Below are positions 4,181 to 31,053 of a DNA stretch of 32,000 nt, one piece after another. The translations under genes were made by a program, and so were the position numbers. Every line of letters starts with the position of its first letter. The first letter of the stretch is position 1. The DNA is taken from assembly GCA_049606355.1 (NCBI GenBank), contig JBMYVL010000006.1:96514-128513 (forward strand). Reading direction: 5' to 3'. The notes below the pieces were generated by a model that saw only the letters and a list, made by a program, of their open reading frames with translations, was not told where the DNA came from and did not search any database. The DNA is from Opitutales bacterium (GTDB lineage Bacteria > Verrucomicrobiota > Verrucomicrobiia > Opitutales > Coraliomargaritaceae).

Positions 4181-4211
4181 TCTGCACGACTACATTTTAC
4201 AGAAAGTATTT

Positions 4212-4759
<548 letters not shown>

Positions 4760-4789
4760 GCCTGCCACCGTCATAAAAACATTTACCAA

Positions 4790-4819
4790 CGCTCCGAGTT
4801 TAACTCGGAGCGTTTTTTT
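4790..4819 (+). terminator. Rho-independent terminator of the rpsM-rplQ operon
   Basis: A 9-bp GC-rich stem, CGCTCCGAG (4790-4798) pairing with CTCGGAGCG (4804-4812), has a 5-nt loop and is followed by T7 (4813-4819). It lies 31 nt after the rplQ stop. Confidence 0.85.
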
Positions 4820-16513: not shown

Positions 16514-16643
16514 TAGATTTCTCGCAAGGATTATTTGTTTTTTTTGACCATTTTCTGCCGAATCCGCCGCGGCGGCTCCAGCTCGGTGCTTTTTCGTGCA
16601 CCTGTCTTGCCTTCGCCGCGGCAATCCTCCAGTGTGCGGAACT

Positions 16644-17102
16644 ATGCAGGAGGCAAAAAATACCGCCCGAGCCCTGGTGCGCATCGGCTTTGATGGTCGG
16701 GTCCACAAGTATTTCAAGGGGCCGCAGGCAGGTGAGCGCTATGCCAACGAACTGCGGGTGCTGCGCTATCTCGAGCAGAAAGGCTGTGCCTTTGTGCCGC
16801 ATTTGATCAGTAGCGACGACGCCAAGCTGTATTTGGTGACCTCCAATGCGGGCCAACGGGTCGAGCATGTCAGCGCGGCGAAATGTGAACAGATGTTTGC
16901 ACAATTAGAGCGCTACGGGGTACGCCATGAGGATGCTGAGCTCCGTAATATTACGTACAACGAACAGCAGGGGCAGTTTAATATCATTGATTTTGAATAC
17001 GCGACGATTCTGGAGCCGGGCTACCCGCCCTCGCCGGAAATGAAATCCGTCGCTGACCGCGGCCAGTGGCAGGAGCCACCGACAAGTACTGAACGACGAT
17101 GA
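16644..17102 (+). CDS. Minimal protein-kinase-like fold protein (~152 aa; Bud32/RIO/choline-kinase-like catalytic core)
   Basis: Core elements appear in order: IGFDGRVHKYF (Gly-rich loop plus Lys), ANELRVLRYLE (helix C Glu), VRHEDAELRNITYN (H-x-D-x4-N catalytic loop) and FNIIDFEYA (DFG-equivalent). The stop overlaps the PP2C start (ATGA at 17099-17102). An alternative GTG start lies at 16596. Confidence 0.6.
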   Translation: MQEAKNTARALVRIGFDGRVHKYFKGPQAGERYANELRVLRYLEQKGCAFVPHLISSDDAKLYLVTSNAGQRVEHVSAAKCEQMFAQLERYGVRHEDAELRNITYNEQQGQFNIIDFEYATILEPGYPPSPEMKSVADRGQWQEPPTSTERR

Positions 17103-17926
17103 TGGCCGATTCCGACCCACCGACCCTACACTGGGCGGGATGTACCGATGTGGGACGTTTTCGCTCAAACAACGAAGACGCCTATCTGGCGCTGGCAGTC
17201 GACGGTGAGGGCGTCCGCCGCTTGGGTAAGTATGGCGACGCGGACCTACAGACCTGCGACTACGTGGTGGCAGTCAGCGATGGCATGGGGGGCGCGAATG
17301 CGGGAGAATTTGCCAGTCAGGTGGCAGTCGATAAAATCACGAGCTTGTTTCCACGTTCGTTTCGCAGCGCTGCAGGGGGCCTGCAGATCGGCTTTCAGGA
17401 TATCCTGACGCAGTTGTTTGCCGAGATCCACGCGGAGCTGCAGCACCTGGGGCAAAGCTATGAGGAGTTGTCCGGTATGGGTGCGACACTGAGTCTGTGC
17501 TGGGTGCGCCCCGGATGGCTCTACTTCTGCCATGTGGGGGATAGTCGCATTTATCACTTCCCCGCGAAGGGGACGCTGCAGCAACTCACCCAGGATCACA
17601 CCCACGTCGGGTGGCAATACGCGCAGGGGCAGCTCAATGAGCGTCAAGCGCGCGAGCATCCGGGGCGTAATGCCCTGCAGCAGGCGCTGGGCGGCAAGAC
17701 TCAAGTCCTCAATCCCTGTCTGGGTGCGGTGGCGTATGAGCCGGGTGATCAGTTTTTGCTGTGCACCGATGGGCTGGTCGAGGGCCTGTGGGACCGCGGT
17801 ATGGCACGTATTTTAAGCACCGCGCCACCAGCGGGCGAGGGCACGGTGGCGGAGCGCTTGGTGCAGGAAGCAGTCGCGACCGACGGTCGGGATAACACGA
17901 CGGCACTGGTCCTGTCCTTTCGCTAG
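17099..17926 (+). CDS. PP2C-family Ser/Thr protein phosphatase
   Basis: 275 aa with RSNNEDAY, VAVSDGMGGANAGEFAS, GATLS, HVGDSRIY, LLCTDGL and DNTTALVL. Confidence 0.88.
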   Translation: MMADSDPPTLHWAGCTDVGRFRSNNEDAYLALAVDGEGVRRLGKYGDADLQTCDYVVAVSDGMGGANAGEFASQVAVDKITSLFPRSFRSAAGGLQIGFQDILTQLFAEIHAELQHLGQSYEELSGMGATLSLCWVRPGWLYFCHVGDSRIYHFPAKGTLQQLTQDHTHVGWQYAQGQLNERQAREHPGRNALQQALGGKTQVLNPCLGAVAYEPGDQFLLCTDGLVEGLWDRGMARILSTAPPAGEGTVAERLVQEAVATDGRDNTTALVLSFR

Positions 17927-17986
17927 CGGTACTCGCCGCCGCAGGCATGCTTTAAGCTGCGTTCGACTTGACTTTTCGCGCGGGTG

Positions 17987-18004
17987 ACTTTGATTAATCA
18001 AAGT
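17987..18004. promoter_or_regulatory. 18-bp perfect palindrome ACTTTGATTAATCAAAGT; candidate metalloregulator operator of the metal ABC operon
   Basis: 9+9 perfect inverted repeat ending 1 nt before ATG 18005. A TTGACT hexamer lies at 17968-17973, and a -10-like ATTAAT (17993-17998) sits at the palindrome centre. Confidence 0.5.
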
Positions 18005-18988
18005 ATGCAGTTTGGTTTATCACGATCCTTCGCCGCGCTCGCCCTCACGGCCCTCGCGCTGCTGTGCAGTTGTGAGCGCGCGCCTGCCCCGCAGCAAACA
18101 GCGACGCGCCCCGCCGATCACTACAAGGTGCTGTGTACCGTCGGGATGATCACGGATGTGGTGCGCAACCTGGCCGGCGATACCGCGGCAGTGGAGGGCC
18201 TCATTGGAGAGGGGATTGATCCGCACCTCTACAAGCCCACCCGCGGGGATGTGGTCAGGCTCGCGGCTGCCGACGTGGTCTTTTACAATGGCCTCTTGTT
18301 GGAAGGGAAGATGACCGATCTTTTTGCCGGGCTCGCGAGGGATGGGAAGCCGGTGCGGGCGGTGACTGAATCTATTTTGCAGGATGCGGCCTATCTGTTG
18401 GCTAAGGACGATGGCTCGGCACAGACCGATCCGCATGTGTGGATGGATGTGCAGGGCTGGATGCAAGCGGTACCGGTTCTGTGTGAGACGCTCAGCGCGT
18501 ATGCGCCGCAGCACGCCGCCAGCTATGCAGCCAACGCAGCGGCGTATCTGCAGGAACTCGCCGCACTCGACGCCTATGCGCGTGCGGCCCTGTCGACCAT
18601 CCCGGTGGCGCAACGGGTGTTGGTCACCGCGCATGACGCCTTTAACTACATGGGCCGTGCCTATGGAATCGAAGTGCGCGGGATTCAGGGGATGAGCACC
18701 GAGTCTGAAGCCGGCGTGCGCGATCTCGAGGCCTTGGTTGAGTGGATCGTCGCCAGGCAGATTCCCGCGGTGTTCGTGGAAAGTTCCGTGGCAGATAAAA
18801 ATGTGCGGGCACTCGTCGAAGGGGCGCGGGCGCGCGGTCACGAGGTTGTGATCGGCGGCGAGCTGTTCTCGGACGCGATGGGGGCCCCGGGCACGTACGA
18901 AGGCACCTATATTGGTATGATCGATCACAATGTAACTACCATTGCGAATGCCTTGGGGGGCAGCGCGGCGGGCTTCCGACAGAAATAG
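18005..18988 (+). CDS. Metal ABC transporter substrate-binding lipoprotein (ZnuA/TroA/MntC/YtgA family)
   Basis: Signal peptide with a Cys-containing lipobox-like LALLCSC. Also DPHLYKPT, DPHVWMD, and VTAHDAFNYMGRAYG...ES, typical of cluster A-I SBPs. An alternative GTG start lies at 17984. Confidence 0.85.
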   Translation: MQFGLSRSFAALALTALALLCSCERAPAPQQTATRPADHYKVLCTVGMITDVVRNLAGDTAAVEGLIGEGIDPHLYKPTRGDVVRLAAADVVFYNGLLLEGKMTDLFAGLARDGKPVRAVTESILQDAAYLLAKDDGSAQTDPHVWMDVQGWMQAVPVLCETLSAYAPQHAASYAANAAAYLQELAALDAYARAALSTIPVAQRVLVTAHDAFNYMGRAYGIEVRGIQGMSTESEAGVRDLEALVEWIVARQIPAVFVESSVADKNVRALVEGARARGHEVVIGGELFSDAMGAPGTYEGTYIGMIDHNVTTIANALGGSAAGFRQK

Positions 18989-19045: not shown

Positions 19046-19855
19046 ATGACTGCAACCGTTGAATCCGTACCGCAGGGCGCGTCACCCGCCGCCGCGGCAG
19101 AGCGCTACCCCTTGTCGGTGCGCGACCTCACCGTGGCTTATCACCGTAAGCCAGTCGTTTGGGATATCGACCTCGCGATACCCGAGGGCAAGTTAGTCGC
19201 GATCGTCGGACCCAACGGAGCCGGCAAAAGCACCTTGCTGAAGGCTTGCTTGGATTTGATACCGCGTACTTCGGGGGAGGTACAGGTCTATGGCCGGCCC
19301 TATGCAAAGGCGCGCCAACAGGTCGGCTATGTGCCACAACGCGAGAGTGTCGATTGGGATTTCCCTGTCAGCGCGCTCGATGTGGTGGCGATGGGTCTGT
19401 ACGGCCAGCTGGGCTGGTTTCGCCGGGTGAACAAGCGTGCGCGCGCCCTGGCGCTACAAGCACTCGATCGTGTCGGCTTGGCGGATTATGCCGATCGGCA
19501 GATTAGCCAGCTCTCCGGCGGCCAGCAGCAACGCACGTTCTTGGCTCGGGCGCTGGTACAGGATGCCGATGTTTATTTAATGGATGAGCCCTTTGCCGCA
19601 GTTGATGCCGCGACGGAACGCGCCATTGTCGAATTGCTCAAAGACTTCCAGCGCCGTGGCAAGACTTGTCTGGTGGTGCACCACGATTTGGCGACGGTGC
19701 CGCAGTATTTTGACTGGTCGGTCCTACTCAATATGCGTGTGGTGGCGCAGGGTCCGACGGATGTCGTGTTCACCGAAGCGAACTTGCGCAAGACCTATGG
19801 GGCGAAGCTCTCGCTGTTGAGCGAGGCCGCGGAGCAATTGATGCAAGCGCAGTAA
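19046..19855 (+). CDS. Metal ABC transporter ATP-binding protein (ZnuC/TroB/YtgB-like)
   Basis: Walker A GPNGAGKST, signature LSGGQQQR, Walker B VYLMDEP, H-loop VVHHD. Confidence 0.9.
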   Translation: MTATVESVPQGASPAAAAERYPLSVRDLTVAYHRKPVVWDIDLAIPEGKLVAIVGPNGAGKSTLLKACLDLIPRTSGEVQVYGRPYAKARQQVGYVPQRESVDWDFPVSALDVVAMGLYGQLGWFRRVNKRARALALQALDRVGLADYADRQISQLSGGQQQRTFLARALVQDADVYLMDEPFAAVDAATERAIVELLKDFQRRGKTCLVVHHDLATVPQYFDWSVLLNMRVVAQGPTDVVFTEANLRKTYGAKLSLLSEAAEQLMQAQ

Positions 19856-19863
19856 GTCATTCG

Positions 19864-21216
19864 ATGGAGGGGTCTGATCTTTCGGCAGTGCTTTTCCTGC
19901 GCGATTACAATACGCGCTTGGTGGTTGTCTGCACGCTTTTGCTCGGTTGCGCCTGCGGCTTGATGGGCAGCTTTCTTCTCCTGCGTAAACGCTCGTTGAT
20001 GGGGGATACGCTTTCGCATGCCACTTTGCCGGGCGTCGGTCTGGCCTACATGCTCGCTAGTTTACTGGGGGGCAATGGCAAGTCCCTGCCGGTGTTGCTT
20101 GCGGGGGCCACGCTTACCGGCTTGTTGGGTTGTTTTTGTGTGCTGTTGATTCGCAATCAGACGCGCATCAAAGACGATGCGGCGATGGGGATCGTCTTGA
20201 GCGTCTTTTTTGGCGCCGGGGTCGCGGTGCTGGGCCTGATACAAACCATGCCCGAGGGCAGTGCGGCAGGCTTGGAAGCCTTTATCTACGGCAAGACTGC
20301 GTCGATGATCATGAGTGATTTTCGCCTATTGCTGCTGGTTACCGGCACCGTACTTGTGCTTTCGGTTGTATTGTTTAAGGAATTGCGCCTGCTGTGTTTC
20401 GATGAGGTCTATGCCGCTGCGCAGGGCTGGCCCGTGAAGCGCTTGGATCTCCTGCTGCTCGCTTTGGTGACCTTGGTCACGGTAGCCGGGCTGCAAGCGG
20501 TCGGCCTGATATTGATCATTGCCTTCCTGATCACGCCTGCCGCGGCCGCACGGTTTTGGACCGATCGTCTGGACGGCATGTTAGTGCTCTCTGCGGTGAT
20601 TGGCGGCTTGAGCGGCTGGCTTGGTGCCAGTCTCAGCGCATTGGCGCCGCGCCTGCCGGCCGGTGCACTGATCGTTCTGGTCGCCGCCGGCTTCTTTATC
20701 GTCAGTCTGCTGTTGGGCACGGAGCGCGGTGTCGCGGTGCGTTGGTTGCGGCAACGCAGCCTCAAGCGCTCGGTGGGGCGGCAGCACTTATTGCGTGCGT
20801 TGTATGAGATTTTGGAAGCCGATGCCTTAAACAGTCGGTCGGTCCAGATTCGGCCCGTAGCGTTTCGGCAAGTGCGTGGCCGGCGGACTTGGTCGGACGC
20901 CCAGCTACGGCGGCATTTGCAGCATGCCTACCAGGACGGACTGCTCGAGGCCATTACCGCAGCGGACGGCATCGTGCTATCCGAAGCCGGTTTAGAAGCG
21001 GCGATCCAAGTCACGCGTAACCACCGCCTGTGGGAGCTCTATTTAATCGAATATGCCGATGTGGCGCCCAGTCGGGTCGACCGCGATGCGGATACGCTCG
21101 AGCACGTGCTGGGGGAGCAAATGGTGGGCGAACTGGAAGCCAAGTTGCAACGCCTGCGCATGGCCGGCACTGCAGTCGTGCCGCCGAGTCCACACCCCAT
21201 TCAACCCGGAGACTGA
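19864..21216 (+). CDS. ABC-3 metal permease fused to a C-terminal DtxR/MntR-like repressor domain (YtgC-YtgR-type architecture)
   Basis: 450 aa. Residues 1-~297 are a multi-TM ABC-3 permease, ending in LLLGTERGVAVRWLRQR at the point where the downstream paralogue terminates. Residues ~300-450 contain a wHTH-like segment and TRNHRLWELYL...DRDADTLEHVLGEQM, which resembles the DtxR-family dimerisation/metal-binding helix region. Confidence 0.78.
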   Translation: MEGSDLSAVLFLRDYNTRLVVVCTLLLGCACGLMGSFLLLRKRSLMGDTLSHATLPGVGLAYMLASLLGGNGKSLPVLLAGATLTGLLGCFCVLLIRNQTRIKDDAAMGIVLSVFFGAGVAVLGLIQTMPEGSAAGLEAFIYGKTASMIMSDFRLLLLVTGTVLVLSVVLFKELRLLCFDEVYAAAQGWPVKRLDLLLLALVTLVTVAGLQAVGLILIIAFLITPAAAARFWTDRLDGMLVLSAVIGGLSGWLGASLSALAPRLPAGALIVLVAAGFFIVSLLLGTERGVAVRWLRQRSLKRSVGRQHLLRALYEILEADALNSRSVQIRPVAFRQVRGRRTWSDAQLRRHLQHAYQDGLLEAITAADGIVLSEAGLEAAIQVTRNHRLWELYLIEYADVAPSRVDRDADTLEHVLGEQMVGELEAKLQRLRMAGTAVVPPSPHPIQPGD

Positions 21217-21225
21217 GGCGCAGCT

Positions 21226-22141
<916 letters not shown>

Positions 22142-22161
<20 letters not shown>

Positions 22162-23299
22162 GGAACTCGTCGTTGTTCTTGGTCTGACTGAAGCGATCGA
22201 TCATCGTCTCTGCGGCATCTTCAATCTTTTGGCCGGCGAGTGCGCGGCGCAGGAATTGCGCGCCGGTGAGGTACTTGCCGGACAGCAACAGTTCTTCCTT
22301 GCGCGTGCCGGATGCATTGAGATTGATCGCAGGCCACAGGCGCAGCTCCGCCGCTTTGCGATCGAGCACCATTTCCATATTACCGGTGCCCTTGAACTCC
22401 TGAAAAATTAGGTCGTCCATCTTGCTGCCAGTTTCAATCAAGGCAGTGGCGATAATGGTCAAGCTGCCACCTTCTTCGCAGTTGCGTGCGGCAGAGAAAA
22501 TTTGCCGTGGCTTTTCCAGGGCACGGACATCCAGGCCACCGGTCATGGTGCGCCCACCTTTACCGGAAGAGGCGTTGTAAGCACGGGCCAGACGCGTGAT
22601 GGAGTCGAGCAGTAAGACGACATCTTTACCCGCTTCGACCATACGCTTGGCGCGCTCGACGGCGATTTCCGCCATACGCAGGTGGTTGGTGAGTTCTTCA
22701 TCGTTGGACGAGGCGTAGATCTCCGCATCCACGCTACGCTTGAAATCGGTGACTTCTTCGGGCCGCTCATCCACGAGCAGTACAATCACATGGCACTCCG
22801 GATGGTTTTGCAGGACGCCAGCAGCAATATCATGCAGCAGGGTGGTCTTACCGGTACGGGGTGGGGCAACAATCAAGCCACGCGTGCCCTTACCAATGGG
22901 GCAAAATAAATCCATGATGCGGGTGGTGACGCGGCCGTCGCTGTGCTCGAGGCGGATTTGTTCATCCGGCGCAATCGAGACCATTTGTTGGAAACTGAAG
23001 CGGCGCTTGCGCTCTTCGACCGTGGCGCCATCGATGGTGTCGATAAAGCGCACCTTGGGGTTGGGGTGGCGTGGGTTGTGTTGCGCTTTCGCAACAATGA
23101 AATTACCCTGCTTGAGTTTGAAGCGTTTGATCAGTTCGCGTGGCACAAAGGGGTCGCTGGGCGTGGTCTTGCCATTGCGTGTTGGGTCAATCAATTGCCC
23201 CGACTTATTCGGCAAGACTTCCAGAATGCCGGAGACCTCGATCTCATTGTCCTGCGTTTGTGCTGCCTTGGGCTCTTCGGTTTCGTTGTGGTCGCTCAT
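22142..23299 (-). CDS. rho: Transcription termination factor Rho (no canonical N-terminal helix-bundle subdomain)
   Basis: OB-fold region [16 protein letters not shown]...[18 protein letters not shown], Walker [35 protein letters not shown], and a C-terminal segment typical of Rho. I prefer ATG 23299 over the upstream TTG at 23374. Confidence 0.9.
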
Positions 23300-23554
23300 A
23301 TGGTCAAGCTGGCTACAGCTTTTGCTGTGATGTGCGCATAGAGTGCGACATGACAGGTGGTGGGGCAGATTCAATCCGCCGCGTGGAAGGGTATCGTTGC
23401 TTTGGATCGGTGAGCCACAGGCTCAATCGCTTGCGAAGGATGTTTCGCACAATCCGTCAACGATGTCCGCATTGAGGGGCACGAGCTGCGTACTGTCAAT
23501 GCTTTAGAAGGGCGAGTCGCTTGCTGCGAAACCGCCAGCCGGAGCGAACCGACA

Positions 23555-24104: not shown

Positions 24105-25016
24105 ATGAACTTACTCAAACTACTCAGGCACTGTGTGATGGAAGAGGACAACCGCCTCCTGCTGACATCATCGCCGTTGATTTTTATGCACCTTGCCTGT
24201 ATCGGCATCTTTTTTACCGGCTTTAGTTGGGTCGCGGTGGCAGCACTGGCGGTGACTTATTTGACACGGGTCTTCGCGCTCACCGCCGGCTTCCACCGCT
24301 ATTTCTCACACCGCGCGTTCAAGACCAGTCGCGCCTTTCAGTTCGTGTTGGCGTGGGTGGGCACGTCGTCCGCACAGCTCGGGCCGATGTGGTGGGCGGC
24401 CAACCACCGCCATCATCATCAACACTCGGATAAAGAAGCGGACATACACTCACCGGTTATTCGCGATGCCTTTTGGGCGCACATTGGTTGGGTGCTGTGC
24501 AAGGCACACAGTGAAATTAAATACGATCGGATCAAAGACCTAACCAAATATCCGGAGCTCAAGTTTATCGATCGGTTTCATGTGTTGCCGGTGCTGAGTC
24601 TAATTGTGGCGCTCTATGCGATTGGTTGGGGCCTGAATGTGGCCTTCCCACAGCTGGGTACGAGTGGCTTACAGTTGGTGATGTGGGGCTTCTTTTTGAG
24701 TACGGTGTTGGTCTACCACGTGACGTTTTGTGTGAATTCGGTGACGCACATCATCGGCAGTAAGCGCTTTGCGACTGATGATGAAAGTCGCAACAACTGG
24801 TGGGTTGCCTTGCTAACCTTTGGCGAAGGTTGGCACAACAATCACCACCGTTACCCTTCTTCGGCACGGCAAGGGATGTATTGGTGGGAGATTGATGTTT
24901 CGTATTACATCCTGCGTTTATTCGAGCTCTGCGGTATTGTTTGGGATGTGCGGGCGTATCCACAAAAGATCTACGCGGAGGCCGCTGCCAATGCGGCTCG
25001 CTCGCACGGCGCATGA
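24105..25016 (+). CDS. Membrane acyl-CoA/acyl-lipid desaturase (Delta9 stearoyl-CoA-desaturase family)
   Basis: Three His boxes in the canonical order: HRYFSHR, HRHHHQHSD, HNNHHRYP. Hydrophobic segments flank them. Confidence 0.85.
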   Translation: MNLLKLLRHCVMEEDNRLLLTSSPLIFMHLACIGIFFTGFSWVAVAALAVTYLTRVFALTAGFHRYFSHRAFKTSRAFQFVLAWVGTSSAQLGPMWWAANHRHHHQHSDKEADIHSPVIRDAFWAHIGWVLCKAHSEIKYDRIKDLTKYPELKFIDRFHVLPVLSLIVALYAIGWGLNVAFPQLGTSGLQLVMWGFFLSTVLVYHVTFCVNSVTHIIGSKRFATDDESRNNWWVALLTFGEGWHNNHHRYPSSARQGMYWWEIDVSYYILRLFELCGIVWDVRAYPQKIYAEAAANAARSHGA

Positions 25017-25795
25017 GTGGCTATTGGGCAGCTTTGTTTGTAGTCGGCTTCGCTGTTGCGGGAAGCATGTATGCCTTGGCCCTGCGTTGGCGCCGGATGG
25101 CCTTGGTGGATCTCATCTGGACGGCGGGCGTCGGGATCGCCGCGGCTGCGTACGTGAGCGCGCATGAGCTCTACCACGCACGCGCGCTCTTGGTACTGGC
25201 GGTGGTGTCGCTCTGGTCGCTGCGCTTGACTGTGCATCTGTTTTGCGACCGGGTACGTAGTGGGGATGAAGATCCGCGCTATGTAAACTTGGCCAAACAT
25301 TGGGGGGCCGCAGCGCGGCGAAATTTCTTCGGTCTGTTTTTGGTGCAAATTGTCTTCGTGGCTTTGTTTATCCTGCCGGTTAGCACCGCGCTGCAGCACC
25401 GTGCGGCAGTTTCATGGCTGGATGGGCTGGCGCTGACGATTGCGCTTGTGGCGTTTCTGGGTGAAAGCATCGCCGATCGCCAGTTGGCTCGTTTTCGTGC
25501 CGACACGCGGCATGCCACGCAAGTCTGCCAAGAGGGGCTATGGCGTTATTCGCGGCACCCGAACTATTTTTTTGAGTGGGTGCACTGGTGGGCTTACGTC
25601 GCGTTTGCTTGGGGCAGTCCACAGTCATGGGTCGCTTGGATCGGGCCGGTCGCCATGTACATTTTTCTACGGTACCTTACCGGTATCCCTTACGCTGAGC
25701 GCTCCTCCTTGCAGCGGCGTGGCGAAGCGTATCGCCAGTATCAATACACCACCCAAGCATTCTTTTTATGGAAACCACGCACACCTCCGTCCTAA
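25013..25795 (+). CDS. DUF1295 family membrane protein (steroid 5-alpha-reductase / ICMT-like fold)
   Basis: Multi-TM with GLWRYSRHPNYFFEWVHWW, the hallmark C-terminal motif of DUF1295. ATG 25013 overlaps the desaturase stop (ATGA). Confidence 0.75.
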   Translation: MSGYWAALFVVGFAVAGSMYALALRWRRMALVDLIWTAGVGIAAAAYVSAHELYHARALLVLAVVSLWSLRLTVHLFCDRVRSGDEDPRYVNLAKHWGAAARRNFFGLFLVQIVFVALFILPVSTALQHRAAVSWLDGLALTIALVAFLGESIADRQLARFRADTRHATQVCQEGLWRYSRHPNYFFEWVHWWAYVAFAWGSPQSWVAWIGPVAMYIFLRYLTGIPYAERSSLQRRGEAYRQYQYTTQAFFLWKPRTPPS

Positions 25796-27000
25796 GGACT
25801 GCAACTGACACGAACACGGTACCCTTGCGTTGGGTGGAGCGTCTCTTTGTGCGTCTACTGCGCCGACTGCACTCAGGTCGTTTGCGCATCGAATTTCCAT
25901 CCGGCGCGCAGTGTGTGGTGGGTGAGCAGGATTTGCCGCAGGTTAATTTGCAGATCCAGCATCCGTCTTTCTTCAAAAAGGTGTTGCGTGGCGGCAGTGT
26001 CGGCTTCGGTGAGGCCTACGTCGAGGGTCTCTGGACGACGAACGATCTTAGCGCCCTGTTGAAATTGCTCGCGCGCAACCAGCAAGATGTCGGCCGTTTA
26101 CGCAAAGGCTTTTCTTATTTGACGCAGCGGCTCAACCGCGTGGGGCATGTGGCGCGGCGCAACACACGGGTCAAAAGCCGGCAAAATATTCAAGAGCACT
26201 ACGATCTCAGTAATGAGTTTTACCAGCTCTTTTTGGATCCAAGCATGACCTACTCGAGCGCACTGTTCGCTCATTACTACGAGAGCTTGGAGCAGGCACA
26301 GCTCAATAAAATCGACCGCATGTTGGATCTGGCTGCCGTGGGTCAGGGCGACCACTTGTTGGAGATCGGCACCGGTTGGGGCGCACTGGCATTACGCGCC
26401 GCACAGCGTGGCTGCCGCGTGACGACCATTACGCTTTCCGAAGCACAGTTTGCGCTGGCACAGCAACGCTTTGCTGCGGCGGGTGTGAGTGAGCAGATCG
26501 ACTTGCGCCTGCAGGACTATCGGGATTTGGACGGGCGCTTCGATGCGGTCGTCTCCTGTGAGATGATAGAAGCAGTCGGTCACGAATACTTGGCGAGCTA
26601 TTTTGAAACGATCCGTGATTGCCTGAAGCCACGCGCGCGCGCGGTGCTCCAAGCGATTACCATACCGGATGATCGCTATGCGGCGTACTGCCGTAGTTGC
26701 GATTGGATTCAAAAATACATTTTCCCGGGCGGCCACTTGCCGTCTCCGGGTGCGATGCAGGCGCAGGTCGATGCCGCGCGCGAGATCAAAGTAATACTCA
26801 GTGAGAGCTTTGGTCGCCACTATGCAGAAACCCTGCGCCGCTGGGCAAAGGCCTTTAACCGTAGTCGGCCTGAACTGAATGCCCTCGGATTTGATTCCGA
26901 GTTTCAGCGCAAGTGGAATTATTATTTCAGCTATTGCGAAGCGGGCTTTGATACCGACTTGATTGATGTGAAGCACATCGTCATCAAGCGCAAAGACTAG
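25768..27000 (+). CDS. Cyclopropane-fatty-acyl-phospholipid synthase family SAM-dependent methyltransferase (long form)
   Basis: 410 aa with IQEHYDLSNEFYQLFLD, the SAM motif LLEIGTGWGALAL, YIFPGGHLPS, and the C-terminal YFSYCEAGF. Confidence 0.85.
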   Translation: METTHTSVLRTATDTNTVPLRWVERLFVRLLRRLHSGRLRIEFPSGAQCVVGEQDLPQVNLQIQHPSFFKKVLRGGSVGFGEAYVEGLWTTNDLSALLKLLARNQQDVGRLRKGFSYLTQRLNRVGHVARRNTRVKSRQNIQEHYDLSNEFYQLFLDPSMTYSSALFAHYYESLEQAQLNKIDRMLDLAAVGQGDHLLEIGTGWGALALRAAQRGCRVTTITLSEAQFALAQQRFAAAGVSEQIDLRLQDYRDLDGRFDAVVSCEMIEAVGHEYLASYFETIRDCLKPRARAVLQAITIPDDRYAAYCRSCDWIQKYIFPGGHLPSPGAMQAQVDAAREIKVILSESFGRHYAETLRRWAKAFNRSRPELNALGFDSEFQRKWNYYFSYCEAGFDTDLIDVKHIVIKRKD

Positions 27001-27046
27001 GGCGAGCGACACTCCTAAGCCGCACACTGCTGCCGAGCTGAAAGCA

Positions 27047-27304
27047 CTACTTGTGTGCGTCGGACAGCAGGTTCTTCAGGGCTTCCTTTTTATCTTCCGG
27101 CATGGCGGGGCGCTTCGTTTGCAGCGTCGCTTCCTGCTCTTTGTAGCAGCGGCACATGTCCTGACTGTCCATCACCTGCTGGTTAAACTTACCGCAGAAA
27201 ATGCAGAGCTTAACGTGCAGCTTGAGGAAAAAACGGCGTAGCGGCGGAAGCTTATCATAATCTTCGCGATGCAGTGCGTTGGAAACTTGTTTACAGGTGA
27301 ACAT
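27047..27304 (-). CDS. Small soluble zinc-finger (ZAS / zf-HC2-type) anti-sigma factor
   Basis: 85 aa, no TM segment, with C4-x25-H30-x3-C34-x2-C37. It lies 11 nt downstream of the ECF sigma gene. Confidence 0.6.
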   Translation of the reverse strand: MFTCKQVSNALHREDYDKLPPLRRFFLKLHVKLCIFCGKFNQQVMDSQDMCRCYKEQEATLQTKRPAMPEDKKEALKNLLSDAHK

Positions 27305-27315
27305 AGCTGAGTGCT

Positions 27316-27964
<649 letters not shown>

Positions 27965-27975
<11 letters not shown>

Positions 27976-28759
27976 GCGGTGTTTCCGGTGTGTCGCGATT
28001 GATCACGGTGTGGGCGGAGTGCGGCGCCGGGCGCGGGTGCACGGCTAGCTGTTTTCGATAGGCCAGCACCGCAGCTTGCCAAACGATACGCGGCAGGCTG
28101 TTGAGCGCGGTATCCCAGGGGTGATACAGGGCATAGCGACGGATGGCGCGATTGTGGATCGCGTGGCCGTTTCCTTGCATCCATGTGCGCAGAACGCATG
28201 CGCCGTCACGATGCAGGTCGACCCCGAGGTACAACTCGCCTGCAGTCACTTTAAAGGTAAAGGCATAGTCTCCGCGCAGATCATTAAAGGGGGAGACGTG
28301 AAAGTCTTTCGGGCAGCTAGCGGTCCAGGTATCGGCTGCGGATTGGTAGAGCTCAGTCAGTGGGTAAATGTGTCGATCACCGAAGGTGTTGTTGACTTCC
28401 GCTATCGCGCACAGCAGCTCCGCGCCGTCGAGCCGCAGGTAGAAATTGACGGGGTTAAAGGCGTAGCCGAAATAGCGCGGCGAGGTGACGAGCATGGTGC
28501 GTTGCCCGGCTTGTAGTGGCGGTAAAAATGCCTCCAACTGCGGTTCAATCGCCTGTGCTTTGCCGTGCAAATAGTCGCAGTCGCGGAGGCTGAGTACGGC
28601 GCGGTCGTTGTGCCGAAAAAGGCGGGTCTGCTCGGCGAGCGCATCCAGCTCGGCGAGATCAAAGGCGAAGAAGGTTATCGGATAGCTGAACGCGTGAGCT
28701 ACGGGTCCACAGCGTTCGTGGACCACGGTGCCACGGTAGATCTCAGAGCGCAGACTCAT
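27965..28759 (-). CDS. DUF1365 family protein
   Basis: 264 aa. The N terminus (IYRGTVVHERCGPVAHAFSYPITFFAFDL) and the later SPRYFGYAFNPVNFY are characteristic of DUF1365. Its position between the FAD oxidoreductase and Cfa-type genes is as in other bacteria. Confidence 0.7.
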
Positions 28760-30033
28760 AGCTCAATGCCGAAGCCACGCGCTACCTCGGTGGCCGATTG
28801 GACCGCATCTTCGTGGAAGCCGTAGCCGAAGTAACTGCCGCAGTACCAGGTGTTGCGCTGACCATTCAGCGTGCGTAGGCCTTGCTGGGTAGCCATCGAT
28901 TCAAACGAGTACAGCGGGTGGGTGAGGGTGGTTTGATTGATAATACTTGTTGGATCGATCGGGCGTGTCGTATTCAGGGTGACGATGTAGTCCCGCTCGG
29001 TCTGCAACTGCTGCAAGCGATTCATGTAGTAACTGACGGAGACCGGCCGATCATCGGCATGCCCGGGCTCGCGGGCAAAATTCCAAGATGCCCACAATTT
29101 GCGATTGGGTGGGAGTTGCGTGGTGTCGGTGTGCAGCGTCACCGTGTTGGCCTGATAGCGCCACGGACTGAGGTTGGCAGTTTCTTCAACGCTGGGATCG
29201 CTCAATAGTTGGTAGGCTTCGTCGGCGTGCGTACCGATCACCACCTGATCAAATTCCTGAGTGGGAGCAGCCGCGAAGTCGAGCTGCACCTTGCCTGCGT
29301 CGCGTCGGATGCGCTGCGGAGCGCAACTCAGCTGCGGCGGGTGTGCAAAGGAGTTGAGCATGGCGCGCACGTAGGTGTGCGAGCCACCCTGTACATAGTT
29401 CCATTGCGGGCGATTGACCAAACGTAGCAGCCCGTGGTTTTCGAGGAAGTGTAGGTAAGGCTGCGCCGGAAATTCGTGCATGCGCTGGATCGGGGACGAC
29501 CAGATCGCTGCACCCATCGGGTAGAGGTAGTGGTTGAGGAAGGCTGCACTGAAGCCACGATCGGCGCAGTAGTCGCCCAGCGCACGATCCTGGAGGTAGC
29601 CGCTGTTGAGATCCGCGTAGCCGATTCGTGCAAAGCGCCACAGCTCTTTGACCAAGCTCAGGTGCTGCGGTTTAAACCAGTAAGCGAGGGATGGAAACAG
29701 GGTAGCCAGGCTAGTGCCCGCATAGCCATAGTTCGTTTGCGGATCGTGAAAGCTGAAGGTCATCGAGCTATCCGCCACTGCGACGCCGAGCTGCTCGAGC
29801 ACTTGGGTGAACTTTGGGTAGTTGCGATGGTTCATCACGATGAAGCCGGTATCCACCGCAGTCCCGGCATCCGGACCGTCTTGAATCGTTAAGGTGCGGG
29901 TATGGCCGCCCGCGTAGGCGTTCTTCTCAAAAAGCTGCACTTCGTGGCGGCGGCTGAGCAGCCATGCGGCAGTCAGGCCGGCGACCCCGCAACCGACCAC
30001 TGCGATGCGTTGTTTGGGCTCCTTTATCTGCAT
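28756..30033 (-). CDS. FAD/NAD(P)-binding amine-oxidase / phytoene-desaturase-like oxidoreductase
   Basis: The N-terminal dinucleotide fold IAVVGCGVAGLTAAWLL...LFEKNAYAGGH is present. It overlaps the DUF1365 start by 4 nt. Confidence 0.8.
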   Translation of the reverse strand: MQIKEPKQRIAVVGCGVAGLTAAWLLSRRHEVQLFEKNAYAGGHTRTLTIQDGPDAGTAVDTGFIVMNHRNYPKFTQVLEQLGVAVADSSMTFSFHDPQTNYGYAGTSLATLFPSLAYWFKPQHLSLVKELWRFARIGYADLNSGYLQDRALGDYCADRGFSAAFLNHYLYPMGAAIWSSPIQRMHEFPAQPYLHFLENHGLLRLVNRPQWNYVQGGSHTYVRAMLNSFAHPPQLSCAPQRIRRDAGKVQLDFAAAPTQEFDQVVIGTHADEAYQLLSDPSVEETANLSPWRYQANTVTLHTDTTQLPPNRKLWASWNFAREPGHADDRPVSVSYYMNRLQQLQTERDYIVTLNTTRPIDPTSIINQTTLTHPLYSFESMATQQGLRTLNGQRNTWYCGSYFGYGFHEDAVQSATEVARGFGIEL

Positions 30034-30036
30034 GGT

Positions 30037-31053
30037 TCAGTGGGTGGGGCTGAAGCGGTAGTGGGTGACGCACCATTCATGGCCGTCGTTGTAGGCGAAG
30101 AGTTCCGCGCAGGCCATGTAAAACATACGCCAGCGCTGCAGCCACAGCTCGGTGTGTTGGCCATAGCAGGGCTGCAGGCAGGAGCGAAGTTCCGCAGCAT
30201 GGCGATCGTGCAGCTTGAGCCACGCCTCCAGCGTCTGGCTGTAGTGACGCCCATTGACCGTCCAGCGCGCGGCTTCGGTAAAGCCGCTGGCTGCAGTCGG
30301 GAGTAGATCGGCGGCAGGCATGATGCCGCCGGTAAAGAAGTGGCGCGCCATCCAGTCTTTCGCGCCACGGTCGTCAAACAAGTACGTGTGCCGACGGTGG
30401 GTGAAGATGTGCACGAAGAGTTGGCCCTGCGGGTGGAGCCAGTTGCGCAGGCGTTGGAACAACTGGCGGTGGTTGCGCACGTGTTCAAACATTTCCACCG
30501 AGACGATCCGATCGAAAGCTTGCTCGGGTTCAAACTCGTTAATGTCGCAGGTAATCACGTGCAGATTGCTGAGTCCGCGCGCCCGTGCTTGGCTTTCAAT
30601 GTAGGCACGCTGTGAGTGGGAGTTACTCACCGCCGTGATCGCGCTTGCCGGATAGTGGGCGGCCATCCACAGGCTGAGGGAGCCCCAGCCACAGCCCAGT
30701 TCGAGGATCGCTTGCCCGTCAGCGAGCTTCGCGCGCTCGCAGCTGAGGCGCAGCATGGCCGCCTCCGCCTGTTCGAGACTCGCGCTCGCATCCGTCCAGT
30801 AGCCACTGCTGTATTTCAAGTGTGGGCCCAATACCTTGCGGAAATAATCTGCAGGAATCTCGTAGTGCTGTGCATTGGCGGCTTCGGTGGCCTCGGCAAG
30901 CGGACGTTGACTCAAGCAGTCGATCCATTCAGCAGCGCTGCGCTGGCACTGCTGCGTTTCACGCAGGCGCTGGGCGAGCAGGCGGCGGATCCCCCAGCGG
31001 AGCATGCGGTCGGGCAGCAACCCGCGTTCGGCAAGAATGATGGGTAAAGACAT
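30037..31053 (-). CDS. Cfa/mycolic-acid-synthase family SAM-dependent methyltransferase (short form)
   Basis: 338 aa with HYEIPADYFRKVLGPHLKYSSGYW, the SAM motif ILELGCGWGSLSLWMA, VEMFEHV and FFTGGIMP. It is the first gene of a five-gene minus-strand operon. Confidence 0.8.
   Translation of the reverse strand: MSLPIILAERGLLPDRMLRWGIRRLLAQRLRETQQCQRSAAEWIDCLSQRPLAEATEAANAQHYEIPADYFRKVLGPHLKYSSGYWTDASASLEQAEAAMLRLSCERAKLADGQAILELGCGWGSLSLWMAAHYPASAITAVSNSHSQRAYIESQARARGLSNLHVITCDINEFEPEQAFDRIVSVEMFEHVRNHRQLFQRLRNWLHPQGQLFVHIFTHRRHTYLFDDRGAKDWMARHFFTGGIMPAADLLPTAASGFTEAARWTVNGRHYSQTLEAWLKLHDRHAAELRSCLQPCYGQHTELWLQRWRMFYMACAELFAYNDGHEWCVTHYRFSPTH

Follow-up and report, generated by a model that had tools for sequence, protein, structure and literature searches.

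A metal-importer operon with a permease-repressor fusion

The window analysed here, a stretch of 32,000 nucleotides of contig JBMYVL010000006.1 from an Opitutales bacterium (assembly GCA_049606355.1), contains an operon for a metal ABC transporter in which the first of two permease genes continues in frame into a sequence encoding a DtxR-type repressor, an arrangement known from the YtgC-YtgR (YtgCR) protein of Chlamydia. The four genes of the operon occur in the order substrate-binding protein (SBP), ATPase, permease::repressor and permease, and their location and that of the associated features are shown in Table 1. Open reading frames (ORFs), Pfam and NCBIfam all agree with the ytgABCD-like order that an earlier note on this DNA had proposed, and the 450-amino acid (aa) ORF claimed there is present on the + strand with the quoted peptide strings in its translation. 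In the databases this product is named only "iron chelate uptake ABC transporter family permease", its regulator having been overlooked.

Table 1. Location of the metal operon, of the domains of the fusion product and of the upstream elements in the window.
Feature	Position	Strand	Remarks
TTGACT, -35-like hexamer	17968..17973	+	TTGAC invariant in 15 Opitutales promoters
Perfect 18-bp palindrome, ACTTTGATT and AATCAAAGT, together ACTTTGATTAATCAAAGT	17987..18004	.	candidate operator, abuts SBP ATG 18005
Cluster A-I metal SBP, TroA-like, ZnuA family	18005..18988	+	Pfam ZnuA, E 7.7e-77
ABC transporter ATPase, Mn/Fe/Zn type	19046..19855	+	Pfam ABC_tran, E 3.7e-30
Permease::repressor fusion ORF	19864..21216	+	ATG start, 450 aa
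Permease domain of the fusion, aa 1-295	19864..20748	+	ABC-3, PsaC-like; Pfam and PsaC 7kyp structure match
Basic juxtamembrane segment RQRSLKRSV, aa 296-304	20749..20775	+	joins last transmembrane helix to helix 1 of the winged helix-turn-helix (wHTH)
Divergent wHTH, aa 305-373	20776..20982	+	alpha1 GRQHLLRALYEILE, alpha2, alpha3, beta-wing; profile and fold matches
Metal-binding/dimerisation domain, aa 374-433	20983..21162	+	PF02742; H387, E391, D406, D410, E413, H414
C-terminal motif VPPSPHPI, aa 439-446	21178..21201	+	conserved; P443 and H444 invariant, including chlamydial YtgCR
Second ABC-3 permease, no tail	21226..22161	+	311 aa; Pfam ABC-3, E 6.1e-46

The SBP, which likely starts at the ATG at 18005 (an alternative in-frame GTG occurs at 17984), is by far closest among solved structures to TroA of Treponema pallidum (1toa/1k0f, E 4e-79, against 2e-42 for the next SBP). 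Its DPH, DPH, AHD and FSD motifs align with the ligand-bearing motifs of TroA and correspond to a His/His/His/Asp site with no His-rich loop. This system is thus Tro-like. The best NCBIfam matches of the ATPase are a manganese/iron ABC ATP-binding protein and MntA. These matches, like all other NCBIfam equivalog scores, fall far below the equivalog cutoffs and do not single out a metal. The second permease, whose gene immediately follows that of the fusion in practically every related locus, has no tail and there is therefore one repressor domain per heterodimeric transporter. A generic terminator scan revealed no convincing terminator inside the operon. No separate troR gene occurs at its end, where the next gene is the convergent rho, and no other metal regulator is encoded within the window. 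The rho gene (22142-23374, minus strand), with a product composed of Rho_RNA_bind and ATPase domains, shares 20 nt (22142-22161) with the 3' end of the gene for the second permease, and no terminator-like hairpin was found between the two.

Structure of the junction

In Pfam, the fusion product matches ABC-3 over aa 18-283 (E 2.7e-63) and the Fe_dep_repr_C model PF02742 over aa 374-431 (45-47 bits for a cutoff of 27). The product is indeed longer than its 311-aa paralogue encoded at 21226..22161, although by 139 aa and not by the ca. 150 aa of the earlier note. The DNA at the junction (20700-20830) is open through GTERGVAVRWLRQRSLKRSVGRQHLL, with no stop, no homopolymer run and no slippery or frameshift-prone sequence. 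The permease thus runs in frame into the soluble domain within a single ORF.

The segment that joins the two parts (aa 296-304) is basic in sequence yet variable among relatives. In both AlphaFold2 (AF2) models a continuous helix extends over the junction, from aa 290 to 323 in the full-length model and over residues 2-25 in the model of the tail, and a flexible linker is absent between the last transmembrane helix and the winged helix. The full-length model is of moderate confidence, with a predicted local distance difference test (pLDDT) value of 64. We drew on it for the fold of the permease and for secondary structure at the junction alone, and the way in which it orients the tail towards the membrane domain is not trusted. 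The membrane part of this model is closest to PsaC of Streptococcus pneumoniae among solved structures (PsaBC, PDB 7KYP; 32-34% identity, E 6e-14, TM-score 0.76 on the target). PsaC has no C-terminal regulatory domain; it is homodimeric and is regulated by a distinct protein, PsaR. In the fusion, basic residues border the last transmembrane helix and the coupling-helix loop FD..A..G falls on the same side, from which the C-terminus is predicted to be cytoplasmic.

The tail as a two-domain DtxR-family module

The C-terminal ca. 150 aa of the fusion are supported as a two-domain module of the DtxR family, composed of a wHTH followed by a metal-binding and dimerisation domain. The DtxR/MntR-like nature that the earlier note had attributed to this soluble part is borne out by PF02742, by the comparison of a tail profile with the PDB and by the fold itself. 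PF02742 was matched by all of 27 diverse tails, whereas the DtxR wHTH model PF01325 gave no match at E<=1 in the fusion, in its tail or in the 27 diverse relatives, which indicates that the DNA-binding domain is divergent. When the profile of diverse tails was compared with the PDB, SloR, DtxR, ScaR and IdeR were retrieved from residue ca. 5-10 to ca. 120 with E values down to 3e-15; the alignment begins at residue 10 of DtxR and residue 5 of SloR and hence covers both the wHTH and the dimerisation domain. Weak NCBIfam alignments of the fusion with MntR and DtxR also extend back into the helix-turn-helix region. Of the two domain models proposed beforehand for a search with residues ca. 300-450, that of the dimerisation domain is thus matched directly, whereas the wHTH is detected by the profile-PDB and fold comparisons.

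The AF2 model of the tail, built with the alignment of diverse tails, is confident (mean pLDDT 85.8) and displays the order alpha1, beta, alpha2, alpha3, two-stranded wing and long helices, with the recognition helix alpha3 located after a conserved R-x-W. In a Foldseek search of this model against the PDB, the top 50 matches were all DtxR-family repressors (DR2539, DtxR, SloR, IdeR and MntR), aligned over 120-140 columns with TM-scores of ca. 0.6, and included the DNA complexes 1ddn, 2it0 and 7b1y, DNA-bound forms of DtxR and IdeR being represented. In agreement with the earlier note, no SH3-like third domain follows: the fusion stops at aa 450, 17 residues past the last helix, and Pfam reports nothing more. 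This absence groups the fusion with the two-domain members of the family and with the chlamydial YtgR tails, whose C-terminus falls at the corresponding position. MntR and TroR are two-domain members, the SH3 domain being a feature of the DtxR/IdeR/SloR subgroup.

Metal ligands and C-terminal motif

Profile alignment to chains 2qq9 and 2qqb places M10, H79, E83, H98, C102, E105 and H106 of DtxR at H308, H387, E391, D406, D410, E413 and H414 of the fusion. The H/E/D/D/E/H set, which the earlier note had assigned, is reproduced by this alignment, and the correspondence of M10 with H308 is added to it. Among 35 close relatives these positions do not vary, and among 34 diverse fusions they are invariant or nearly so, H308 being kept in 76%. 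Since the ligand positions and the residues of helix 1 remain invariant across tails that share only 37-53% identity, they are most likely under selection for function. As read from these alignments, the predicted ligand set of the tail is complete, composed only of O and N ligands, and conserved. Together with the TroA-type site of the SBP, it fits Mn, Fe or Zn alike.

Beyond the dimerisation domain, the VPxSPH motif is also conserved, H444 being kept in 91% of the 34 diverse fusions, while chlamydial YtgCR reads D-P-H. The motif falls in a low-confidence region of the model. It resembles the S-P-F/H-G-x-P-I-P linker motif found after domain 2 of DtxR, IdeR and SloR, and it might stand in for the absent SH3 domain by contributing a further metal ligand.

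Distribution of the fusion

Relatives were sought in a collection of 5.8 billion proteins, and genome loci in contigs representing one genome per species. More than 120 clusters of 448-454 aa, with 73-80% identity to the fusion, all have the same Pfam architecture; those that are named belong to Coraliomargarita, Puniceicoccaceae, Opitutales or Verrucomicrobiota. With the tail alone as HMMER query, 888 cluster representatives were obtained at E<=1e-3; the best 150 comprise 33 full-length fusions, 66 fragments whose alignment also extends into the permease, and ca. 50 tail-only sequences, many of which are probably fragments.

The survey of genome loci, performed with an alignment of seven tail sequences, indicated that relatives are encoded at >=495 loci. 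The counts given below for reading frame and operator rest on the best 80 of these, with taxon names taken from the record titles of metagenome-assembled genomes (MAGs). The 80 loci span all major orders of Verrucomicrobiota together with Planctomycetota, Lentisphaerales and Bdellovibrionales, and 77 of them have a tail that continues the reading frame of an ABC-3 permease, within an operon of the order SBP-ATPase-fusion-permease. This refutes a stop or frameshift between two separate genes, which the earlier note had named as a finding that would overturn its claim. Two of the three exceptions are truncated by contig ends. The third, in a Pedosphaerales-type MAG (L052:4656-5489), has a tail ORF of 269 aa that does not align in frame with a permease and could be either a genuine split variant or a MAG frameshift. 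One locus labelled Polaribacter sp. (Bacteroidota; L015, CAXQRK010000111.1) carries an Opitutales-type fusion operon with the same operator box and a tail 68% identical to that of the window; its label is probably a binning error.

The survey outside Chlamydiae thus showed ABC-3::DtxR fusions to be common across the phyla of the Planctomycetes-Verrucomicrobia-Chlamydiae (PVC) superphylum. Because they are widespread in Verrucomicrobiota, Planctomycetota and Lentisphaerales, the fusion is a shared lineage feature of this superphylum, to which both the host Opitutales and the Chlamydiae belong. The idea of a free-living counterpart of YtgCR therefore holds for the architecture but not for an isolated case.

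A candidate operator at the start of the operon

The stretch 17960-18010, which the earlier note had named as a binding target, holds a conserved palindromic operator candidate. The palindrome begins 13 nt past the TTGACT hexamer, in the ca. 60-bp gap between the gene of a PP2C-family phosphatase and the SBP gene, and it is single in the window even when three mismatches are allowed. When 15 Opitutales promoters were aligned, the invariant elements were TTGAC, both arms of the palindrome and the abutting ATG, the region further upstream being unalignable. In these loci TTGAC lies ca. 31 nt from the SBP ATG and no Shine-Dalgarno sequence is visible; this spacing fits a -10 element that may lie inside the palindrome, with a leaderless or nearly leaderless mRNA.

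Boxes occur at the same position in other clades and their form depends on the clade: ACTTTGAnnnnTCAAAGT in Opitutales, ATCTTGAnnnnTCAAGAT in Verrucomicrobiales and Akkermansiaceae, and in the Roseibacillus clade other palindromes, TTAGCCnnGGCTAA, TTAGGTTAACCTAA or TTAGCCAAGGCTAA. The Roseibacillus-type boxes are located 57-229 nt upstream of the SBP match (L027, L028, L030, L031, L044, L053, L061 and L062), and these palindromes resemble the classical DtxR/IdeR iron box. The core YTTGA-N4-TCAAR was found 40 times in 20.7 kb of sequence upstream of SBP genes and six times in 611 kb of background, a ca. 180-fold enrichment; several of the six background copies are also promoter-proximal. Among the 68 loci that could be evaluated, 39 have the core box and 8 more an iron-box-like palindrome, so that 47 carry either box. 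The box is also found with the fusion operon in Bdellovibrionales (L078), and in L040, where no SBP match was found upstream, the core box precedes the ATPase gene. The recognition-helix region of the tail differs by box type, Roseibacillus-clade tails carrying LLRTARxEDHL.

In an uncultured Puniceicoccaceae MAG, an exact copy of ACTTTGATTAATCAAAGT occurs at L074:6267-6284, a few kb downstream of the fusion operon and 25 nt before an ORF with a TonB-dependent-receptor-like N-terminus (signal peptide, then ...EEFTVVSTGTRTERLL). To judge from this sequence context, the copy suggests a regulon that may reach outer-membrane uptake.

Comparison with known systems

The closest known system is chlamydial YtgCR, for which the sequences of Supplementary Data 5 of PMC7755916 were used. 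The C. trachomatis protein (CT069/CTL0325) has 451 aa, against 450 aa here, and the fusion aligns with that of strain L2 in one BLASTP high-scoring segment pair that crosses the junction (aa 32-429 against 26-430, 27% identity, E 4e-49), so that the alignment with chlamydial YtgC suggested earlier proves collinear from permease to repressor. Identity is 31-33% with YtgCR of Simkania, Protochlamydia and Waddlia. In both cases an ABC-3 domain is followed by wHTH and dimerisation domains without SH3, encoded by the third gene of an SBP-ATPase-permease::repressor-permease operon, and H387, E391, E413, H414, P443 and H444 are common to them. An AT-rich palindromic operator is likewise expected in the promoter of YtgR itself, as in the operon described here. 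The ligand sets differ, His and Glu occurring in Chlamydia at the positions of D406 and D410 (H/E/H/E/E/H instead of H/E/D/D/E/H), and the WWW tryptophan-sensing motif of the C. trachomatis permease is replaced by VLF. The hosts differ as well, a free-living marine member of Verrucomicrobiota in one case and an obligate intracellular pathogen in the other, and cleavage, Fe2+ dependence and promoter binding have been demonstrated for the chlamydial protein only. There, the ytg promoter is repressed in an iron-dependent manner by the C-terminal 139 aa of YtgC, which are functional as a repressor (PMC6504234), and cleavage of YtgR from YtgC takes place both in the course of infection and in Escherichia coli (PMC5599777, PMC7755916). 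A 2017 review still described neither the protease that frees YtgR nor the trigger of cleavage (PMC5599777). According to the summary in that review, Thompson et al. (2012) found permease-repressor fusions in 11 phyla (PMC5599777). Among the papers that our literature search covered, none describes the fusion in Verrucomicrobia or Planctomycetes.

The troABCDR operon of T. pallidum shares a TroA-like SBP, two ABC-3 permeases and a two-domain repressor without SH3, but TroR is encoded by a separate gene after troD, whereas here it is the first permease that carries the repressor, upstream of the second permease gene. According to its published description, TroR autoregulates its own operon (PMC5599777). 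The stand-alone regulators DtxR, IdeR, SloR, ScaR and MntR have the same fold, domain order and conserved ligand positions as the tail, and their palindromic operators overlap the promoter, as would the candidate operator here. The tail differs from them in being covalently attached to a membrane permease and in having a wHTH that PF01325 misses. It also lacks the SH3-like third domain of DtxR, IdeR, SloR and ScaR, and has Asp at the position of C102 and His at that of M10 in DtxR.

Proposed mechanism and alternative explanations

The explanation that we favour, with a probability of roughly three in four, is that of a YtgCR-type fusion within a Tro-type importer operon, in which a metal-dependent autorepressor is made as a portion of the permease and is probably released from it. 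Architecture, ligand conservation and a conserved candidate operator are the observations on which this explanation is built; from them we infer DNA binding, the response to metal and release. The imported metal (Mn2+, Fe2+ or Zn2+) would build up in the cytoplasm and load the DtxR-like domain, which would then dimerise and bind the palindrome. The promoter would thereby be occluded, and the synthesis of the transporter and of the repressor itself would stop. DtxR-family proteins bind dyad sites as dimers. Since each transporter has a single, rigidly tethered tail and the chlamydial homologue is cleaved, binding of such a site would most likely involve release of the domain from the membrane, the pairing of two transporters being an alternative to release.

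Several points weigh against this explanation. DNA binding, metal response and cleavage have been demonstrated for chlamydial members only, and the chlamydial cleavage product, at 28-30 kDa, exceeds the size of the DtxR-like domain by itself (PMC5599777, PMC7755916). To these is added the silence of PF01325 on the wHTH. A generic sigma-70 scan called no promoter at the palindrome and found no good -10 element there. Shuffled sequences indicate that ca. 0.8 perfect palindromes with 9-nt arms are expected per 32 kb by chance, and the argument for an operator consequently rests on position and conservation. Of the evaluable loci, 21 of 68 have neither box; moreover, the box pattern was generalised after the loci had been inspected, and the loci are phylogenetically related so that the enrichment counts do not represent independent events. 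The co-variation of recognition helix and box, which follows clade boundaries, is supportive but not independent evidence. Finally, the scan for regulators covers the window only, and Fur, Zur or a stand-alone MntR encoded elsewhere might bind the palindrome.

The last point leads to an explanation in which the palindrome serves another regulator (of the Fur/Zur/Mur type or a stand-alone MntR), the fused domain having other targets or none. The AT-rich core TTGATTAATCAA is loosely similar to the inverted repeats of Fur-type sites, and the loci without a recognisable box would be accounted for, as would a regulator beyond the reach of a search confined to the window. The box however accompanies the fusion operon across orders and phyla, Bdellovibrionales included, and a second box type takes the same position in the Roseibacillus clade, where the recognition helix has a signature of its own. 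The window encodes no further metal regulator, and autoregulation has been demonstrated for YtgR and is also described for TroR and its operon (PMC5599777). An unrelated regulator acting on this box hence appears quite improbable.

The attachment of the tail invites a different view, namely that it stays membrane-bound as an allosteric metal sensor that gates the transporter by trans-inhibition, DNA binding being vestigial or secondary. The continuous helix without flexible linker, the single tail per heterodimeric transporter and a wHTH beyond the reach of PF01325 would all be compatible with such a role. On the other hand, the wHTH fold and the residues of helix 1 are conserved, the palindrome is conserved exactly where an autoregulatory operator would be, and the sequence around the recognition helix varies with the box type. 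In Chlamydia, the homologous domain is a repressor that binds at its own promoter, and trans-inhibition domains of ABC importers are generally found on the ATPase and not on the permease. The anchored full-length YtgC might nevertheless act as such, by comparison with membrane-anchored LacI (PMC5599777). On balance a mainly allosteric function is very unlikely. A somewhat broader variant is rather doubtful but deserves more weight. In it the fusion would do more than deliver a repressor: the attached domain would sample metal at the cytoplasmic exit of the transport pathway, sensing flux instead of the pool, and would then either gate the transporter or be released or dimerise only once loaded, proteolysis being in the latter case the step that metal regulates. 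The rigid helix, the one tail of each heterodimeric transporter and the strictness with which the PVC phyla have kept the fusion, presumably over a very long time, would fit selection acting on the covalent link as such. Tethering the sensor to its transporter, as put forward in the earlier note, may be a functional principle.

A separate repressor could also arise without proteolysis, by internal initiation near the junction, for example at the GTG codon of V304 (20773-20775). GTG or TTG codons occur at V292, L295 and V304, close relatives have V, I or M at position 304, and some of the ca. 50 tail-only sequences among the best 150 tail representatives might be read in this way, although many are probably fragments. 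The junction has neither a Met codon nor a Shine-Dalgarno-like sequence and no start codon is kept across the diverse fusions. The frame with the permease, held in 77 of 80 loci, would be needless for an independent cistron, and the C-terminal fragment comes from a full-length precursor in both Chlamydia and E. coli (PMC5599777, PMC7755916). Little probability is therefore left to internal initiation. Even less is left to an assembly or sequencing artefact, in which a lost stop or a frameshift would have joined a permease gene to a troR-like gene. Nothing was found in its favour, although L052, one of the three exceptions of which the two others are contig-end truncations, has a shorter ORF of 269 aa; independent clusters with the 448-454-aa architecture number more than 120 and come from several databases, the sequence of the junction is clean and the alignment with chlamydial YtgCR is collinear. 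The artefact is thus refuted by the conservation of the fusion.

Neighbouring genes

Directly upstream of the metal operon, the PP2C-family phosphatase gene (17099-17926) overlaps by 4 nt an ORF of 168 aa with no Pfam match (16596-17102), and the two may form a small signalling pair. A lipid-modification cluster occupies 24105-31053 and encodes a fatty-acid desaturase, DUF1295 and DUF1365 proteins, an amine-oxidase-like flavoprotein, two cyclopropane-fatty-acyl-phospholipid-synthase-like methyltransferases and an ECF-type sigma factor (27316-27975). Finally, a perfect 21-bp hairpin-forming palindrome, GCTCCGAGTTTAACTCGGAGC, is located at 4791-4811 at the end of a pair of overlapping ORFs, 4190-4789 on the minus strand and 4217-4759 on the plus strand, and is probably a transcription terminator.

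Significance of the fusion

This kind of system is already known, having been characterised in Chlamydia and reported in print from other phyla since 2012, and the fusion described here is a well-supported addition to it. For the window itself, the result is chiefly a better annotation of a protein so far named only as a permease. To the known system, these data add a Tro-type SBP, a divergent wHTH missed by Pfam, the D/D ligand variant and the shared C-terminal P-H motif, as well as the prevalence of the fusion across the PVC phyla and two families of conserved operator boxes.

Genetic work in Chlamydia is difficult. As the architecture is standard in free-living Verrucomicrobiota, Planctomycetota and Lentisphaerales, these groups would offer tractable hosts in which to address the question of cleavage, and cultured isolates such as Thalassobacterium maritimum strain SDUM461003 and Coraliomargarita sp. 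SDUM461004 appear among the record titles. In such free-living relatives one may ask whether release is needed, which protease carries it out and what has kept sensor and transporter linked. The clade-specific boxes provide concrete DNA targets and, in addition, a means to predict regulons in phyla that have been poorly studied.

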